Origin: Ostreococcus lucimarinus
Taxonomy: Eukaryota
Reading direction: 5' to 3' (one strand)
Length of the DNA: 64,000 nt
NCBI GenBank assembly: GCA_000092065.1
Contig: CP000583.1
How positions within the stretch are numbered: position 1 is the stretch's first letter; the number at the start of each line of letters is the position of its first letter. Positions 3,194 to 29,327 of the stretch are shown piece by piece. Under the pieces are notes generated by a model. That model saw only the letters and a list, made by a program, of their open reading frames with translations. It was not told the origin of the DNA and ran no database searches. The position numbers and the translations under genes are program-made.

Positions 3194-4645
3194 ATGGCGT
3201 CGCGAAGTGCAGACCGTTCGCGTCGCGTTCGCGTCACGTCGCGACGCGACCTCGACGGCGCGGCGACGATGACGGCGTCGACGGTGCGGATAGAGATGGA
3301 CGCGCGCGTCGGCGCGGGCGATCGCGCGCTGCGCGCGTTCGCGTCGTCGAGCGGGCAAAGTCGAGGCGCGAGGACGCGCGGGACGGTGACGACGACGAAC
3401 GATGACGACGACGACGACGACCCGCGGTGGGTGGTGTGCTCGGGACGACCGTTTCGCGGACGCGTGCGCGTTATCGCGGACGCGAACGCGCTCGCATCGT
3501 TGGTCGTGGAGCGGGTGACGGTGGAGTGGGTGGGACGCGAACGCGTGGGCGCGGAGGAGCGAAGCGTCGCGCGGTCGCCGCCGGGCGAGGTGGCGCGCGC
3601 GCTGACGCTCGAGCCTGGAAGCACGGTGGGGCTGAAGTTTGGCATTGATTTACCTCCGGGATTAGCGCCGAGTTTTCGAGGCGAGCACTCGAGGTATTGG
3701 TATCGCGTGACGTGCAAGGCGACGACGGCGAGCGGGGAGACGCTCGAGGCGAGCGCGCCGTTGACGGTTCGCGCGGGGGATTGGGATCTTGAACGCCGGG
3801 GAGAAGATGACGGTGAATTGTGTGACGATGTGGGCGATGATGATGATGTAGGCGAGATGCGAGAGACGTACAGCGCGCGTGATTTAACTGCGCCGTGGAT
3901 ACACATCGAGGACACCGTGCCGCCCGAGTCGCCGCGATTCAACGGTTCACTAGCGTCGCCTCGCGCTTTGCAGATGTGGGGAGACGTCGAACCGCAGGTG
4001 AGGACACCTCGCGAAAGCTCGACACCGCAAGCGGGCGAAGGATCGGTGTTCACTCCGCAATCGCACGGGCAGAGAAAAAAATCAAAGGCGTACGTCGTGA
4101 GCATGGGCGAGGATCGACTCGTCAAGGTGACGCTGCGCAAGCCCGCACCTAAGTGCGCGATTGGGGGCGAAGTGGCGGGTATACTCGACTTTACGTGCGC
4201 CGAACCTGGAAAAGCGCGAGCGTCCCATGTGCTCATTACGCTCGAGTCGAGTGAAATTATACACGCAGAGGCCAAGACGGTGCACGGCGGCAAGCCGCCG
4301 GTATATAGGAAAATTTGGGTACAAACGCACGAGCGAGTCGAGCATCTCAATACCTCGAATTTCGCTCTTAATTTACCTGCAAATTCCCCTGGAAGCTTTC
4401 GAACATCAAAAGTTGAGCTCAAGTGGCAGCTCAGATTCGAAATTACGTCAGTTAAGAAGACTCCGGCAGGAGAATTCGCGGCGTTTTTCAAAGGCCAAAA
4501 GCACCAGAGCGAGATTTCGACGCTCGAGTGGATACTTCCTCTCGACGTGGGTACAGATTGGCTGACTAACGTTACGAAAATACCCAAGATTAGCAGTTCG
4601 TCAAAGATTCGGAGAGAGTCATCGTTAGTTGCGATGCATGATTAG
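3194..4645 (+). CDS. RGP1 homolog (RIC1-RGP1 Rab6 GEF complex subunit)
   Basis: GIDLPPGLAPSFRGEHSRYWYRVTCKA and TSKVELKWQLRFEITSV match human RGP1 motifs (PPSFRGQSVKYVYKLT, SLKWRLHFEFVTS); strong GC3 on + strand. The overlapping 582-aa Ser-rich minus ORF is judged antisense artefact; ORF-track start 3017 is a TTG, first in-frame ATG is 3194. Confidence 0.6.
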   Translation: MASRSADRSRRVRVTSRRDLDGAATMTASTVRIEMDARVGAGDRALRAFASSSGQSRGARTRGTVTTTNDDDDDDDPRWVVCSGRPFRGRVRVIADANALASLVVERVTVEWVGRERVGAEERSVARSPPGEVARALTLEPGSTVGLKFGIDLPPGLAPSFRGEHSRYWYRVTCKATTASGETLEASAPLTVRAGDWDLERRGEDDGELCDDVGDDDDVGEMRETYSARDLTAPWIHIEDTVPPESPRFNGSLASPRALQMWGDVEPQVRTPRESSTPQAGEGSVFTPQSHGQRKKSKAYVVSMGEDRLVKVTLRKPAPKCAIGGEVAGILDFTCAEPGKARASHVLITLESSEIIHAEAKTVHGGKPPVYRKIWVQTHERVEHLNTSNFALNLPANSPGSFRTSKVELKWQLRFEITSVKKTPAGEFAAFFKGQKHQSEISTLEWILPLDVGTDWLTNVTKIPKISSSSKIRRESSLVAMHD

Positions 4646-4692
4646 CGATGCGATGCGCTATTAGCACTACTTGTGATTATAAACACGAGAAT

Positions 4693-7113
4693 TTAGGCAG
4701 TCGGCGCTCCCGCCGCGACATTTGACCACAACTCGTTGAACGCGTCTGAATTGGTGGAGACGACGCCAAACTTTTCCATTTGCACGGCGTACTCCTTGGC
4801 GTCTAAATATAGCTGACGACAAATCTTGTCTGTGTCGCCCACACCCGTGCTGCTAGTTTTCCCTTGTCGATCTTTAAGACGATTCAGACTTGCCTCAGTC
4901 TTCTTGACCGTCGCCACAAGATCGCTCGCCATTTCAGCGTATCTTTCAGACACGGAATCTACGACCTTATCGACTATTTCTTGTCTCGAAGTCTTAGAAA
5001 ACATTTTTGTGCGCTCATTATCCAAAAATGCTTGCAAGGGAGCGAGAATCGTGGGCACGAAATGACTGTGTCTTGTCGGCATGGGCTTGTTCGTCATGCG
5101 AAATGTGGCGGTGATCCCCTTGAGCTGCTTCAATGATTCAACGCATCTCTCGACGTATACTTTCACGATGAATGCGTCGAGCTGCGGAATAATTTCTTGC
5201 AGCTCGTTTGCGCCTTCTAAGACGCAATCCACCGCGATTTGAGCGGTGTCTTCGCCGAGAATGCTCGTGCTCGCTTTCACGCACGCTGCACCGTCCGAAC
5301 GCACTTTAGCGCACAACTTTTCAACATCCAAGCGCACTAAAATTAACTCATCTCCACCCGCTGTGGCGCCCCAACTAGAAGAAGACGTAACCATGGTGAC
5401 TTTACCTTCTTCAGCATTCGAATCGGAGCTTTGCTGAACAGATAAAGCCTCGATGCCGGCTTTCACCCAAGTTCTATATCGCGACAACACCTGCGCAAAC
5501 AGTCTAATAAATTTGTCCGTGAGGGCTGGAACGAAGACTTCCTCCGCCATGCATTTCGCCATCGTCAGCCATGTTTGCGTTGTCGGTGTGAGTAAAAATC
5601 CATCGCTCGCTCGCGAGGTATCAAGACCCGGCTCGTTCAGCTCTTCATCGACATCGCAAGCAAACTCTTGGAAGCGCAAATTAAAGTACACCGAAAGATT
5701 CCACCTCTTCATGTACGATTCCAAGTACCTGGACGCCCGGAAATGATTCAATGACGCCATCGTTGGTGCGAGATCTTCTAATATATCCACAAACTTCATC
5801 GCCGCGCGATAGTTCTTGATGAAATCCTGTGGGATTCCCGGCGAGTACGCTTTCTCAAAAGCTGAACTCAGTTGCGAATCAACCTCTGCGAGTACAGTTC
5901 CAGCGAGAAAGTCGTGCGACTGTAGGCCCGATTCGGCGACTCGCGTAAGATCAAGTACGTAAGAGCACGATGTAAGCGCAGTTTCACTTAGTTTTGGCAA
6001 CACTGACGCAAAATCTTCCTCGGCAATCGATTCAAGCGTCTTCTCCACCGCTGGGCGGATCAATACAGTTCGAATCGCGCTTTCCACAACGTCAAACTTC
6101 CCGATCGCGGTGCAACCGTGCAAGCAATGACTTATAACGTTCGCGTTCTTTTCTTTTAAACCATCGATGAGCGCAGTTTGCGCCAAAGAAGTGAGCTTCA
6201 ACTCGCAATACTCGATTCGGTCGGCGAGGTCTCGAATCGCCGAAAGATCTTTTCCTTGCTTTTGGTAAAACTTTAAGCGATTTACTTCGCTCGAAATGCG
6301 ATCGAGCATCCGCGCGCGCTCGTTCACATCTCCACTGATGTGCTCTCGATGCATATCGTCCGTTTCAGCTCCGCTCGGCGTCGCTTGATCGTCCTCAAAC
6401 GCTGGAGCCAACATCTCCAAGCCTTCGCGATCCTCCGCGCCGATCACCACCGAGGCGAGTAAGTCTCCAGCTCTCTCCCCACCCGTCGCACCATCGCTCG
6501 CCGATGACTTTCCACCGACGACATCTAACTCTCCGAGCAATCGCTCAACCTTTGAAACCGTATGTCCGCACTCATCCGCCAGGCGCTTGCTCGCGCTCGC
6601 GCGCGCCTGCGCCTCTCGCTCCTCCGCGCTCGCCTCCAACCGTTCCAGCGCTCGCACGATTTCCTCCCTCCCCTCGCTCACCTCTCGTTTCGTCTCAATC
6701 TGTCCCGGCATTATTTTATCCCTCAACTCCGCGTAATCCCTCAGATCATCCCCGAGCGACGCAAACTCCTCGTAGTTTTCGTTCACCAGTCGCTCCAGCG
6801 CCTCGCGCGTCTCCCGCTCGTGCCCGTCCAGCGCCTCCCTCAGCGTTTCCGATCCCACGAACGTCGTGATCTCCTCCACGTACTCCCACGGATCGAAATC
6901 ATCCCTCTCGAACGCCCGCGCGTCGAACCACGTCGGCCTTCCATCGCGCGCGTCGTCGAGATCGCCCGTCCCGTTCGCCTTCGCGACGCTCGCGTCGTCG
7001 TCGTCGTCGTCGTCGTCGTCCCGCCGTCGTCGTATGCGCACGTCCTCGTCGTCGCTCGACGTCGTCGTCGTCGTTCGCGCGTCGTCCTCGTCGCCGTCCA
7101 TCGCCGCCGTCAT
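4693..7113 (-). CDS. COG2: Conserved oligomeric Golgi complex subunit 2 (COG2)
   Basis: N-terminus FDARAFERDDFDPWEYVEEITTFVGSETLREALDGHERETREALERLVNENYEEFASLGDDLRDYAELRDKI matches the COG2 N-terminal domain pattern (F..D.F.....L...L...L......LIN.dY.dFv.L...L). Confidence 0.7.
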   Translation of the reverse strand: MTAAMDGDEDDARTTTTTSSDDEDVRIRRRRDDDDDDDDDASVAKANGTGDLDDARDGRPTWFDARAFERDDFDPWEYVEEITTFVGSETLREALDGHERETREALERLVNENYEEFASLGDDLRDYAELRDKIMPGQIETKREVSEGREEIVRALERLEASAEEREAQARASASKRLADECGHTVSKVERLLGELDVVGGKSSASDGATGGERAGDLLASVVIGAEDREGLEMLAPAFEDDQATPSGAETDDMHREHISGDVNERARMLDRISSEVNRLKFYQKQGKDLSAIRDLADRIEYCELKLTSLAQTALIDGLKEKNANVISHCLHGCTAIGKFDVVESAIRTVLIRPAVEKTLESIAEEDFASVLPKLSETALTSCSYVLDLTRVAESGLQSHDFLAGTVLAEVDSQLSSAFEKAYSPGIPQDFIKNYRAAMKFVDILEDLAPTMASLNHFRASRYLESYMKRWNLSVYFNLRFQEFACDVDEELNEPGLDTSRASDGFLLTPTTQTWLTMAKCMAEEVFVPALTDKFIRLFAQVLSRYRTWVKAGIEALSVQQSSDSNAEEGKVTMVTSSSSWGATAGGDELILVRLDVEKLCAKVRSDGAACVKASTSILGEDTAQIAVDCVLEGANELQEIIPQLDAFIVKVYVERCVESLKQLKGITATFRMTNKPMPTRHSHFVPTILAPLQAFLDNERTKMFSKTSRQEIVDKVVDSVSERYAEMASDLVATVKKTEASLNRLKDRQGKTSSTGVGDTDKICRQLYLDAKEYAVQMEKFGVVSTNSDAFNELWSNVAAGAPTA

Positions 7114-23670: not shown

Positions 23671-24846
23671 TCACATCGGCACGTCTTCGACGTCTTCAAC
23701 TTTACCGTCATATTCTGGCTCTTCCACGACTGGTTGTTGTTCGTCCGATTCCGGTAATGCCGCAGTTGGATTTGTCTCGGTGGCTGGTTCGATGAGCGCC
23801 GCGGGGTGATCGCCCGAGACTTCCACTTGCACGGTGTGCGACTTGTTCGCTGATTCGTCGCGGTCGGCGGAGACGGTCAAGACGCCGTCAGCGCACGAGG
23901 CGCGAATGCTGTGGAAATCGATGTTTCGTGGCAAGCTTTGCTGAAACACGGCACGACCGTGAGAAGTTGCGATATTGATGTGAAGCATACGGTCGGCGGC
24001 CAAGCGGCAAGTGACCTTGTCGGCGGAGACGCCAGGCACGGATCTTCGAACCAAGGTGACGTTTTCCTTTGTAGAATCTTCCTCGACGACAGAGTTCACA
24101 CTGGAGACGATGATATCCATGGGAATAATCGCATGCGGATCCGCCATCTTAATGTTCAAAAGACCGTGGCGCACGGTGACGTCAATGTGCTTCACCTCGA
24201 GATCTGTCGGCAAGTTTTTAAACGTCTTGGCGAAGGTGCCAAACGTCTTCGAGTCGCCCCGAACGACCAACATATCCTCCGGTTTGTGCAAAGTCACGGT
24301 GATATCGCGTTCGCCAAAGCCCGGCACGCTCAAAGTTATCGTGCTCTCATCACCATCGTCGTCGGTTTCCATGTCTTCCTCGCCCTCCGCGATCGCCGCG
24401 CGCGCCGTCGCGTTGATGGGCACCCGAACGGCTTCCGACGTCTTCTTTAGCACCGCGATTCTCAGAATGCCATCGATGCACGACGCCTTGGGCGTGACGC
24501 TCATGTCGATGTATTTCGTCGGCAAGCCGAGCTCGGTCATCGAACGCTCGCCCGCGCTCACGCAAAGCTTGGCGTTCCCCCGGGCGTCCGTCGTCACGTG
24601 GACGTGGACGTCCTTCGCCGCCAGTCCCGGCGCGTGCGCCGAAATCAAAAATCCTCTTTTCGTCTCTTCCACCTTCGCGCGCCCGATCGCCCCTCGCATC
24701 GCGCGCATCGCGCGTCCATCTCGCACAAAATTGAAGTTCCCCTCGCCGACGTCTCGCATCACGTGCTCAAACATCGAATCGACATCGCTCGCCGCTCGCA
24801 TCATCGCACCCATCGCACCCATCGTCGGCATCATCGGCCCGAGCAT
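23671..24846 (-). CDS. Small heat-shock protein family member with three tandem alpha-crystallin (HSP20) domains
   Basis: ACD1 FLISAHAPGLAAKDVHVHVTTDARGNAKLCVSAGER...SCIDGILRIAVLKK; ACD2 ITLSVPGFGERDITVTLHKPEDMLVVRGDS...VKHIDVTVRHGLLNIKMA; ACD3 VTLVRRSVPGVSADKVTCRLAADRMLHINIATSHGR...ASCADGVLTVSADRDE. The ORF-track upstream 1.25 kb is antisense to NFS1 and discarded; start MLGPMMPTMG at 24846. Confidence 0.6.
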   Translation of the reverse strand: MLGPMMPTMGAMGAMMRAASDVDSMFEHVMRDVGEGNFNFVRDGRAMRAMRGAIGRAKVEETKRGFLISAHAPGLAAKDVHVHVTTDARGNAKLCVSAGERSMTELGLPTKYIDMSVTPKASCIDGILRIAVLKKTSEAVRVPINATARAAIAEGEEDMETDDDGDESTITLSVPGFGERDITVTLHKPEDMLVVRGDSKTFGTFAKTFKNLPTDLEVKHIDVTVRHGLLNIKMADPHAIIPMDIIVSSVNSVVEEDSTKENVTLVRRSVPGVSADKVTCRLAADRMLHINIATSHGRAVFQQSLPRNIDFHSIRASCADGVLTVSADRDESANKSHTVQVEVSGDHPAALIEPATETNPTAALPESDEQQPVVEEPEYDGKVEDVEDVPM

Positions 24847-25095
24847 CTTTTCCCTTGTTCTTGTTCTCTTTGTTTTCGTCCTGCGCCGTACGTCGAGTAC
24901 CGCGTGTGTTTGTTTTTTCGCGTTCGATTCCTCGCTCGCGCGCGTGTGACTTCGCGTCGAAGTCGCTGTGTTGCGTGTAGTTGTGACGCCGCGTCCTATG
25001 CGCGCGCGCCGTTTCGAGTCCTCCTCGCGTCCAACGCCCCTTGACGAGTCACGAATCATCAAAGACCCCCCTCGATTCTCGCGTAGTTTACTCGC

Positions 25096-25123
25096 GAACG
25101 TTCTAGAATCGTCGAGAATGTTC
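25096..25123. promoter_or_regulatory. Heat-shock element: GAAcgTTCtaGAA (three contiguous inverted nGAAn units), then a GAAtgTTC dimer 8 nt on
   Basis: cGAAcgTTCtaGAAtcgtcgaGAAtgTTCg read directly; about 250 bp upstream of the sHSP ATG (minus strand), about 40 bp upstream of the NFS1 ORF start. Confidence 0.6.
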
Positions 25124-25161
25124 GCCGACGCCGCACTGCGCGAGGGCACCCCGCGCGCGAC

Positions 25162-26610
25162 ATGCGACGCGCGATCCGCGCGTTCGCGCGCGGCGCGCGC
25201 GCGATCGACGACGCGGCGTCGGCGTCGGCGTCGGCGACGGCGACGGCGACGGCGCGCGGGACGTCGCGCGGGACGCGCGCGGAATCGGGACGTCGATGGG
25301 ACGCGCGCGAGCGATCGCGGGCGCGAGGGATGTCGGCGCTGGCGCAGCCGGTGAGCGCGCCGATCGAACCGGAGTTTGAGATGAAAGGCGTGACGCTTCG
25401 CGGGCGGCCGCTGTACTTGGACATGCAGGCGACGACGCCGTTGGACCCGCGAGTGCTGGACGCGATGTTGCCCTATTTCACAGAGCAATACGGGAATCCG
25501 CACTCGAGAACGCACATGTACGGCTGGGAGACGGAGGATGCCATCGAAAAGGCGAGAGGAGAATTGGCGTCGCTCATCGGGGCGAACGCGAAGGAGATTG
25601 TGTTCACGAGCGGGGCGACGGAGTCGAACAACATGTCGCTCAAGGGGGTGGCGCGCTTTTACAAGGATAAAAAGAAGCACATAATCACAACGACGACGGA
25701 GCACAAGTGCGTGTTGGACTCGTGCAGACAGCTCGAACGTGAAGGTTTCGACGTGACGTATTTGCCCGTGAAGGAAAATGGATTGGTAGACTTGAAGGAG
25801 CTTGAAGCGGCGATGCGCGACGACACCGCCATCGTCTCCGTCATGGCGGTGAACAACGAAATAGGGGTGATTCAGCCTTTGAAAGCGATCGGTGAGCTTT
25901 GCCGATCGAAGAAAATATTTTTTCACACCGATGGCGCGCAAGCAGTTGGGAAGGTACCGATGGATGTGAACGATATGAACATCGACCTGATGTCGATTAG
26001 CGGGCACAAGTTTTACGGTCCCAAGGGGATCGGCGCTTTGTACGTCCGTCGTCGTCCTCGAGTTCGGATGGAGCCTATCATCAACGGCGGCGGTCAAGAG
26101 CGAGGGTTACGCTCGGGGACGCTACCGACCCCGCTCATCGTCGGTATCGGTGAAGCTGCTCGCGTGGCGCAGAAGGAGTTGCAGCGCGACGAAGAGCACG
26201 TCAACCGCTTGGCTAAGAGATTGATAGAGGGCATCGAATCTCGCGTCGAGCACACGCAATTAAACGGTGACCGTGAAGCGCGCTACCACGGCAACGTGAA
26301 CATGTCCTTTGCATACGTGGAGGGTGAATCCATGCTCATGGGACTTAAAGAAATCGCGGTGAGCAGCGGCAGCGCGTGCACGAGTGCGTCTTTAGAGCCA
26401 TCCTATGTTTTGCGTGCGCTCGGTGTGAACGAAGAGATGGCGCACACGTCGGTAAGATATGGATTAGGCCGATTCACTACTGAAGCCGAGGTCGATCGCG
26501 CCATCGAAGCCACAGTGCGTCAAGTCGAAAAGCTTCGTGAGATGTCTCCGCTCTGGGAGATGGTCCAGGAAGGCATAGATTTAAAGACGATCGAGTGGAG
26601 TCAACATTAA
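25162..26610 (+). CDS. NFS1: Cysteine desulfurase, mitochondrial NFS1/IscS type, with presequence
   Basis: [42 protein letters not shown]...[42 protein letters not shown]...[21 protein letters not shown] (PLP-lysine and active-site Cys loop). Confidence 0.9.
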
Positions 26611-27671: not shown

Positions 27672-29327
27672 CTAAGGGTAACGGACGCGATGCACGGTTA
27701 ATTGAAGGGATTTCTTGACGAGCGCGAAGCGCTCGCGGCGGTTGCCAGACGCGAAGGCGTCGAAGACGTCGTCGAGGTGGTCCAAGGAGAGGTGCGGAAA
27801 GATGGATAAGACGCGCTCATAGTCCAAATTCTGTGTGCGTTCGCGCAGACGTTCGAACGCGAGGGCGGGAGCGATGATGATGATATTCTTGGCCGAAGTC
27901 GTGCACATGGGCTGGTCAGCGACGCAAACGCCCTTGGAAGTGGCGGCGAGGAGGAGTTCCCGCACGTCATCGACGCTCGCGCCGGCGGCGTCATAGACCG
28001 AAACGAGATCGGACTCACCGCTCGATTGGGCGAGAATCGAGAGCGGGGGTGAATATGTCTTCCAGAATAGCGCGAAGCGTCCGCTCGAGCCGCCATCGAA
28101 TGCGGCATCTGTTTTCGCTAGAGTTCGCATCGAGCGCACGACTCCGCCTTGATGTAATACGCCAAATAAACACGCCAATAGCGCGTTAATTGCGATCCAG
28201 ATCGCGAACAATCGCCGCTTTCGAGAAACTAATGTACTTCTCGAGTAGTGCGCCGCCAAGACGCACATAGGAAGAATCATCGGCGTCAGAAATCGAGGCT
28301 CTTGATGCGGCGCAAGCGAAAGCGCCGCGAGAGGAAACAAAACACTCGCCCAAAGAGTTCGCACGATTAAATCTCTCGACGATGCGTCTCGTCTTCTTCG
28401 CATCAGTGCACTGAGACTGACGAGCCACAGCACGCTGAACATCAAAGGACCATTGACGAGGACGTGCAAATACCTAGGATGTAAACCGTGCCGCGCTAAG
28501 TTATCGGCGTTGACGTTATATCTGAACGAGTTCCACGGCGTGATGATCCAGTTCTTTGACGTCCAAACCCACACATTGAGCATATTCGTATCGCTAAAGT
28601 ATGCCGTGTCGATCACGATGCACACCACCGCGGTGAGAATCGCCGCCATCGCACCACTCCAAACGCCGACCAACATCGTCAGTGGCGACTTTTCTCGCGC
28701 TCTCGCAACCACATACACCGCCCAAGGCGCGATGAACGCACCGCTCGTAAACCTTATAAAACTACTCACCATCCCTATCGTGCCGATAGCGACACAGCGC
28801 GAGACGGGTCCTAAATACTTGCGTTCAGTTGTCGCGACAAGCGCGCAAGCCGCTGTCGCATATGTCTCCAAAGAATTACTAAAAGGCCGAACGAGCAGCA
28901 CTAAAGTCACCCAAGATGTCGCAAACAATACACCCGCTTCATTCACCGCCCCAGTCGTCGCCGATCCCACCGCCCTCGCGCACGATACCACCGCCAAGTC
29001 AACCGTAGCCGACGCCGCGCACAGCGCCAACCGCGGCGCATACGTCGTCACCCACGATACGTCTAACGCGGCGCCCGTCGCCCGCGCGATCGCGCACGCG
29101 ATGAGATACGATAATCCACTACTCGCGTACGCGCCTAAGATTGATCTTGCGGGCGCGTCGGCGGTGTATTCCCACGGCAACTGCGTCTCTGTCCCGAACA
29201 CGTTCGCAGCGGTGACTTCGTTGGATTGAAACCACTCATCCGGATGGACGTATCCAGGCGCGAACGCAAACGCGAGTCTCAAGAGTGCGAGACCGACAAG
29301 CGTGGCGCGCGCGAGGGTCTCACCCAT
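27672..29327 (-). CDS. GT22-family dolichyl-phosphate-mannose mannosyltransferase (GPI mannosyltransferase PIG-Z/SMP3- or PIG-B-like)
   Basis: N-terminal FAFAPGYVHPDEWFQSNEV (the HPDE-FQS motif of GT22 PIG-B/PIG-Z/ALG9/ALG12) followed by multiple TM segments. Confidence 0.65.
   Translation of the reverse strand: MGETLARATLVGLALLRLAFAFAPGYVHPDEWFQSNEVTAANVFGTETQLPWEYTADAPARSILGAYASSGLSYLIACAIARATGAALDVSWVTTYAPRLALCAASATVDLAVVSCARAVGSATTGAVNEAGVLFATSWVTLVLLVRPFSNSLETYATAACALVATTERKYLGPVSRCVAIGTIGMVSSFIRFTSGAFIAPWAVYVVARAREKSPLTMLVGVWSGAMAAILTAVVCIVIDTAYFSDTNMLNVWVWTSKNWIITPWNSFRYNVNADNLARHGLHPRYLHVLVNGPLMFSVLWLVSLSALMRRRRDASSRDLIVRTLWASVLFPLAALSLAPHQEPRFLTPMILPMCVLAAHYSRSTLVSRKRRLFAIWIAINALLACLFGVLHQGGVVRSMRTLAKTDAAFDGGSSGRFALFWKTYSPPLSILAQSSGESDLVSVYDAAGASVDDVRELLLAATSKGVCVADQPMCTTSAKNIIIIAPALAFERLRERTQNLDYERVLSIFPHLSLDHLDDVFDAFASGNRRERFALVKKSLQLTVHRVRYP

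Follow-up and report, generated by a model that had tools for sequence, protein, structure and literature searches.

A six-unit heat-shock element array conserved with a small heat-shock protein gene in the divergent sHSP/NFS1 intergenic region of Ostreococcus

Canonical eukaryotic and plant heat-shock elements (HSEs) are bound by trimers of the heat-shock factor (HSF), with Chlamydomonas HSP70A/HSF1 and the promoters of plant class-I small heat-shock proteins (sHSPs) as examples. Among the closest described divergent arrangements, the rice genes Oshsp17.3 and Oshsp18.0, both of which encode sHSPs and are demonstrably heat-inducible, lie head to head across an interval of ~355 bp that contains several HSEs (PMC2955743). 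In Cyanidioschyzon merolae, the sHSP gene CMJ101C is likewise divergent to its neighbour, across 345 bp, and its promoter serves as a heat-inducible expression tool for which a short upstream region suffices for heat induction; according to the authors, this interval contains no typical HSE (three nGAAn units) (PMC4206486). Our literature search turned up neither a description of HSEs in Ostreococcus promoters nor a paper tying NFS1 to an HSE, and the locus described here is therefore a new instance of a kind already known.

The stretch of DNA analyzed (the window) comprises 64 kb of contig CP000583.1 of Ostreococcus lucimarinus CCE9901. The features of the locus are listed below, with positions counted from the first letter of the window.

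25096–25123, no strand assigned: HSE array in which six inverted 5-bp units follow one another directly, GAA cg TTC ta GAA tc gTC ga GAA tg TTC
25096–25108, no strand assigned: perfect trimer GAAcgTTCtaGAA, forming the end of the array nearer to the sHSP gene and farther from NFS1
25116–25123, no strand assigned: perfect dimer GAAtgTTC, in phase with the trimer
23671–24846, minus strand: sHSP gene, 391 aa, HSP20/alpha-crystallin family (Pfam PF00011, E = 3.9e-17), the presumed target of the array
25162–26610, plus strand: NFS1, mitochondrial-type cysteine desulfurase, 482 aa (Pfam Aminotran_5, E = 7.9e-95), the divergent neighbour
24973–24989, minus strand: TATA-like motif GCGTCACAACTACACGC (CGTCAyWAy N3-4 GACGC), 109 nt downstream of the array
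25039–25058, minus strand: TGATTCGTGACTCGTCAAGG, with GACTC/TGAGTC (AP-1-like), between the array and the TATA-like motif
24919–24935, minus strand: GCGAGGAATCGAACGCG, common to the lineage of L006 and L007, likely the 5′ UTR or transcription-start region of the sHSP gene

Positions 25095–25124 read cGAAcgTTCtaGAAtcgtcgaGAAtgTTCg, letter for letter as in the initial annotation of this DNA, which had described a perfect trimer and a second GAAnnTTC dimer 8 nt away. Both are present, but the gap between them is 7 nt, which places the dimer in the 5-bp register of the trimer. The two are joined by the imperfect unit gTC at 25111–25113; because this unit is a single mismatch from TTC, the entire 28 bp form one array, with five perfect units, an imperfect fourth one and 17 of the 18 core positions matched. 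The sequence had thus been read correctly, and what had been taken for two separate elements is really one in-phase array, hence a stronger case. It contains more than the three contiguous nGAAn units, in alternating orientation and 5-bp register, that define an HSE, and it lies in the promoter region of a chaperone gene, 250 nt upstream of the ATG of an HSP20-family protein. Among six environmental haplotypes of O. lucimarinus, the core positions of the array were invariant, and the sole change within it was a spacer substitution (ta to ca, in L021), while bases near the array varied and a 3-nt indel was found.

How far such a pattern departs from chance depends on its length. Perfect trimers occurred three times in the window against 1.0 to 1.2 expected, a count reached by 6–14% of shuffles, and a perfect trimer by itself is not significant here; the other two lie within the coding regions of CAND1/TIP120 (36170) and Nuf2 (44146). 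GAAnnTTC dimers showed no enrichment (20 observed, 27 expected). Since neither count was enriched, both were dropped as significance tests, and only the in-phase six-unit reading proved significant. Specifically, the six-unit pattern with up to three mismatches had one match in the window against 0.06 expected, and with no more than one mismatch it appeared in none of 300 Markov-simulated windows; an analytic estimate from base composition gave ~3e-5 such arrays (17/18 core positions) per window by chance. In 271 kb of unrelated loci we found five runs of three units and none of four or more. The array at 25096–25123 is the only one of its kind in the 64-kb window and stands beside the only chaperone gene found there.

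The distance to the sHSP gene, put at ~250 bp in the initial annotation, was measured as 250 nt from the start of the array to the ATG at 24846, and the description of the product as a triple-ACD sHSP agrees with the HSP20 Pfam match and with three ACD-like internal repeats (repeat 1 versus 3, E = 5e-6; repeat 2 versus 3, E = 0.01). The N-terminus is Met-rich (MLGPMMPTMGAMGAMM), and the orthologues also start with clusters of ATG codons; their first in-frame ATGs likewise open a Met-rich N-terminus, which supports the start at 24846. An upstream in-frame ATG on the minus strand (25059; region 25045–25059) would give an ORF of 462 aa, the choice of prokaryote-style automatic gene callers (P0001, P0005). 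This start was rejected because the additional 71 aa are not conserved in the orthologues and overlap the TATA-like and other promoter motifs; the protein probably does not include this extension. Among the 44 non-overlapping long ORFs of the window, Pfam scans identified neither a further chaperone gene nor an HSF gene. A perfect three-unit GAA/TTC run was also seen inside the sHSP coding sequence of two comparison loci, ~580–590 nt past the ATG (L004:4730–4742 and L006:3769–3781); the window counterpart is just GAATCTTC at 24074, and the run is probably a coding coincidence.

On the other side, the NFS1 ATG at 25162 lies 39 nt beyond the last base of the array, in agreement with the ~40 bp given initially. 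An in-frame stop is located 78 nt upstream of this ATG, with no further ATG in between. The predicted protein is a class-V aminotransferase with an Arg/Ala-rich presequence and is labelled "cysteine desulfurase" in database sources. The targeting peptide contains a GCG/GAC triplet microsatellite (gcgtcggcgtcggcgtcggcgacggcgacggcgacggcg; window about 25205–25250), whose length varies among environmental haplotypes of the same species (L001–L003), NFS1 measuring 478–482 aa in this cluster. Farther along, an Alg9-like ORF (27672–29327) is identical to XP_001416929.1 of O. lucimarinus CCE9901. The sHSP and NFS1 genes are separated by only 315 bp with the array inside, in a divergent pairing that is itself conserved, as in a bidirectional promoter; in an interval this short, any enhancer of the sHSP gene is necessarily close to NFS1.

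Conservation in related genomes had been proposed as a check on the element, and the outcome was clear: arrays occurred in all ten representative loci and at one distant homologue. The comparison loci were gathered by an sHSP protein search, contig look-ups and a metagenome scan with NFS1; the set consists of ten representative orthologous loci from about seven Ostreococcus-type lineages, with sHSP proteins 48–57% and NFS1 proteins 78–90% identical. The order of genes, Alg9-Alba-NFS1(−)-sHSP(+)-sugar transporter, was kept across lineages wherever the recovered contig was long enough to show it. The intergenic flanks are beyond alignment across lineages, and every one of them contains an in-phase GAA/TTC array of three to eight units. 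Perfect runs of three to five units were present in nine of the ten representatives, rising to six to eight units once imperfect ones were allowed, and the tenth (L011) has a six-unit array in which two units are imperfect. The arrays of eight comparison loci are as follows.

L004: GAAccTTCgaGAA..GAAgcTTC
L006: TTCgaGAAtgTTCgaGAAtgTTC, five perfect units
L008: TTCgcGAAcgTTC
L009: GAAtcTTCgaGAAtgCTCgaGAAatTTCtgGAAacTTC, eight units, one imperfect
L011: GAAtgGTCgaGAAtgGTCgaGAAtgTTC, six units, two imperfect
L017: GAAtgTTCgaGAAtgGTCgaGAAtgTTC, six units, one imperfect
L018: GAAcaTTCgaGAAcaTTC..TTCtcGAA
L019: TTCgaGAAtcGTCgaGAAatTTCtgGAAacTTC, seven units, one imperfect

Perfect runs of at least three units numbered 12 in 4.05 kb of these intergenic regions, compared with 5 in the 271 kb of unrelated loci, a roughly 160-fold difference in density. 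The imperfect units are usually GTC (GAC on the other strand), with the G retained, and mutagenesis of HSEs has identified the G as the most critical base of the unit. Both this type of imperfection and the spacer-only change among haplotypes fit selection on the core positions. In the lineage of L011 (positions 1–260) and L017 (reverse strand, about 4500–4800, in sHSP orientation), a promoter module of ~90–110 bp is tandemly repeated two to three times and consists of the HSE, then GAGTCGTGAACGGTCAAAGAGTC, then CCGGTGCCCAG.

Next to the array, the sHSP side of the intergenic region carries several recurrent motifs. The TATA-like motif, ~130–140 nt upstream of the sHSP ATG in the window, was found in every Ostreococcus-type lineage, and in five lineages 108–121 nt separate it from the array; in a more distant homologue (L096), a canonical TATAAAA takes its equivalent place. 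From this arrangement we infer that the motif at 24973–24989 is a core-promoter element of the sHSP gene, which would set the approximate position of its transcription start. Two kinds of record were considered as direct evidence for transcription starts and set aside. The contigs L094 (1,540 nt) and L095 (2,286 nt), tried as transcript-derived, are both genomic, the former because the same metagenome sample series gave contigs of at least 100 kb and the latter because it holds a neighbouring gene, and some of the "Tara" records with CDS offsets are clearly multi-gene contigs.

TGAGTC/GACTCA occurs between the array and the sHSP ATG in six of eight lineages, a level reached in none of 100 shuffles, although this enrichment is suggestive only, as many 6-mers were tested. 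These AP-1/GCN4-like motifs are often paired and stand between the HSE and the TATA-like motif (equivalent places checked: L004, L006, L008, L009, L011, L017, L018 and L019), and they may represent a second stress-responsive input, of bZIP type, to the sHSP promoter. The hexamer GGTGCC/GGCACC is present in the sHSP promoter of seven of eight lineages, often paired as GGTGCC N4-5 GGTGCC GTTTCG; it lies between the HSE and the sHSP ATG in L006, L008, L009, L011, L017, L018, L019 and L096, and the single O. lucimarinus copy (25145–25150) falls between the HSE and NFS1. The hexamer was rejected as a promoter motif of general use, with 20 occurrences in the window against 21 expected. A CGTTTCG/CGAAACG element is likewise found in several Ostreococcus sHSP promoters, including that of the window (25005–25021).

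Next, we considered which of the two genes the array follows. Eight of the representatives include NFS1, and in each of them the array is nearer to the NFS1 ATG than to that of the sHSP gene; if distance were the only guide, NFS1 would be taken for the target. The distances vary differently: the proximal array lies 224–270 nt from the sHSP ATG in seven of the ten representatives and 324–385 nt in the other three, whereas its distance from the NFS1 ATG ranges from 39 to 181 nt among the eight. The distance to the sHSP gene is thus constrained, while that to NFS1 drifts. The conserved accessory motifs also stand on the sHSP side, and the NFS1 side amounts to a short stretch of 39 nt in O. lucimarinus.

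Loci in which the two genes are apart point the same way. At L096, where the sHSP homologue is distant (35% identity) and NFS1 is missing from the neighbourhood, a perfect array of five units, with two further ones, lies 150 nt upstream of the TATAAAA. Conversely, six loci in which NFS1 lacks an sHSP neighbour (L022–L026 and L033; NFS1 identity 71–79%, GC 0.50–0.74), taken to be from other green picoalgae, had no HSE in the 900 nt upstream of NFS1 (350 nt in L026), even by relaxed criteria (three units with up to one mismatch, or four with up to two). In L023 and L024, an apparent complex-I subunit gene lies just upstream of NFS1. In these comparisons, NFS1 is neither linked to an HSE by itself nor held at a constrained spacing from one. 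In a more distant sHSP lineage (L012 and L013; 30% identity, GC 0.63), no canonical HSE was found, indicating that HSE control is not universal in this sHSP family. These two loci have a doubled TTT(TC)TCAGAAACG motif with TTC-N3-GAA spacing immediately before a TATAAAA box (L012:2780–2830 and L013:4860–4910), and the CGTTTCG/CGAAACG element noted above is related to this motif. The Aminotran_5 gene upstream of the L013 sHSP homologue, considered as a second sHSP/NFS1 pair, proved unrelated to NFS1 (BLASTP E = 32).

Taken together, these comparisons argue that NFS1 co-induction is not what the array is conserved for. We consider the array to be an HSF-binding HSE that would act as a stress-inducible upstream activating sequence of the minus-strand sHSP gene, and we put the probability of this reading at roughly 85%. 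The initial annotation had called a canonical HSE belonging to the sHSP gene, and that call holds up: the product has an HSP20 Pfam match, the gene is the only chaperone gene among the 44 ORFs, and the array is conserved with it. Its further suggestion, that Fe-S cluster biogenesis is co-regulated through NFS1 from the shared array, runs against the HSE-free unpaired NFS1 loci, the L096 array without NFS1 and the drifting NFS1 spacing.

That suggestion, in which the HSF-bound array would also activate NFS1 so that Fe-S biogenesis is induced together with the sHSP, would add to the sHSP reading rather than replace it. HSEs are palindromic and functional in both orientations, HSE-containing bidirectional promoters are known (the rice pair with its 355-bp interval; PMC2955743), in each of the eight loci with NFS1 the array is separated from the NFS1 ATG by 39–181 nt, and both the divergent pairing and the wider synteny are maintained across lineages. 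With intergenic regions of ~200–300 bp in this genome, however, proximity is unavoidable and carries little information, and the literature search yielded no paper linking NFS1 to an HSE. Given also the HSE-free solitary NFS1 loci, the spacing that is unconstrained toward NFS1 but constrained toward the sHSP gene, and the placement of the accessory motifs, a shared element of this kind seems doubtful. A palindromic array in a 315-bp interval could nevertheless activate NFS1 as a bystander or interfere with it. In the latter case, HSF binding and strong divergent transcription under stress would lower NFS1 expression by promoter occlusion, the array overlapping the core promoter or 5′ UTR of NFS1. 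A mere 39 nt between the array and the NFS1 ATG in O. lucimarinus means that NFS1 transcription must start within, next to or beyond the array, but the 76–181 nt in other lineages leave room for a separate core promoter. We know of no precedent for promoter occlusion caused by an HSE, and interference appears improbable.

It is less probable still that the array is a chance occurrence, a functionless low-complexity 10-bp tandem repeat or the target of a factor different from HSF. A lone perfect trimer is no rarer than chance in the window, replication slippage could give rise to the 10-bp periodicity (GAATGTTCGA-like) inherent in the array, and the whole promoter module is tandemly duplicated in L011 and L017. 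Against this, the six-unit array is far rarer than chance, and it stays in phase across flanks that cannot be aligned, with changes that hit spacers or exchange TTC for GTC. To our knowledge, no other factor family recognizes inverted nGAAn units in a 5-bp register; STAT-type sites have the form TTC-N3-GAA.

Under the preferred reading, with the array as an HSE of the sHSP gene, heat or proteotoxic stress would lead the single Ostreococcus HSF to occupy the array (one Hsf gene is reported in O. lucimarinus; PMC6563006). The six in-phase nGAAn units could hold two adjacent HSF trimers, bound cooperatively. HSF on the array would then activate the sHSP core promoter ~110 nt away, which the CGTCAyWAy..GACGC motif appears to mark, and the three-ACD sHSP would be produced. 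In the available part of the O. tauri Fe-limitation RNA-seq supplements (PMC4855317), the only matches to "Hsp20" and "desulfurase" were unrelated genes, for a p23-like protein and SHMT, and the orthologous pair was not present.

The array is an ordinary HSE in the standard place, and it opens no long-standing question; what is mildly new is only the possible bystander coupling to Fe-S biogenesis. It is tentative, and on balance unlikely, that the head-to-head placement in the Ostreococcus clade lets one HSF-bound array raise NFS1 expression under heat or proteotoxic stress. If it did, the heat-shock response would be coupled to the repair or renewed synthesis of Fe-S clusters that are labile to heat and ROS, and this coupling would arise from gene order in a compact genome, with no NFS1-specific element. 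The locus is a clean example of a cis-element tracking one gene of a divergent pair through evolution, and it suggests that an HSF/HSE system with extended in-phase arrays has been retained in one of the smallest free-living eukaryotic genomes. In practical terms, the 315-bp interval, or the stretch of ~260 bp between the array and the sHSP start codon, makes a good candidate compact heat-inducible promoter for Ostreococcus genetics, analogous to that of CMJ101C.

In comparison with canonical HSEs, nothing essential differs. The O. lucimarinus array has at least three contiguous inverted nGAAn units in a 5-bp register, among them the plant-type TTCtaGAA core, and it precedes a TATA-like element in the promoter of an HSP20 gene; extended arrays of this kind could hold two trimers. 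What sets the case apart is its setting in a picoalga with a single HSF and a 315-bp intergenic region, with binding and induction predicted from sequence. The head-to-head layout recalls Oshsp17.3/Oshsp18.0, but where both rice partners are heat-inducible sHSPs (PMC2955743), the Ostreococcus partner NFS1 is a housekeeping Fe-S enzyme whose orthologues carry no HSE when apart from the sHSP gene. The closest algal parallel, CMJ101C, shares with the Ostreococcus gene its divergent orientation and an interval of similar size, and whereas no typical HSE was reported in the C. merolae interval (PMC4206486), the Ostreococcus promoters contain clear arrays of three to eight units.
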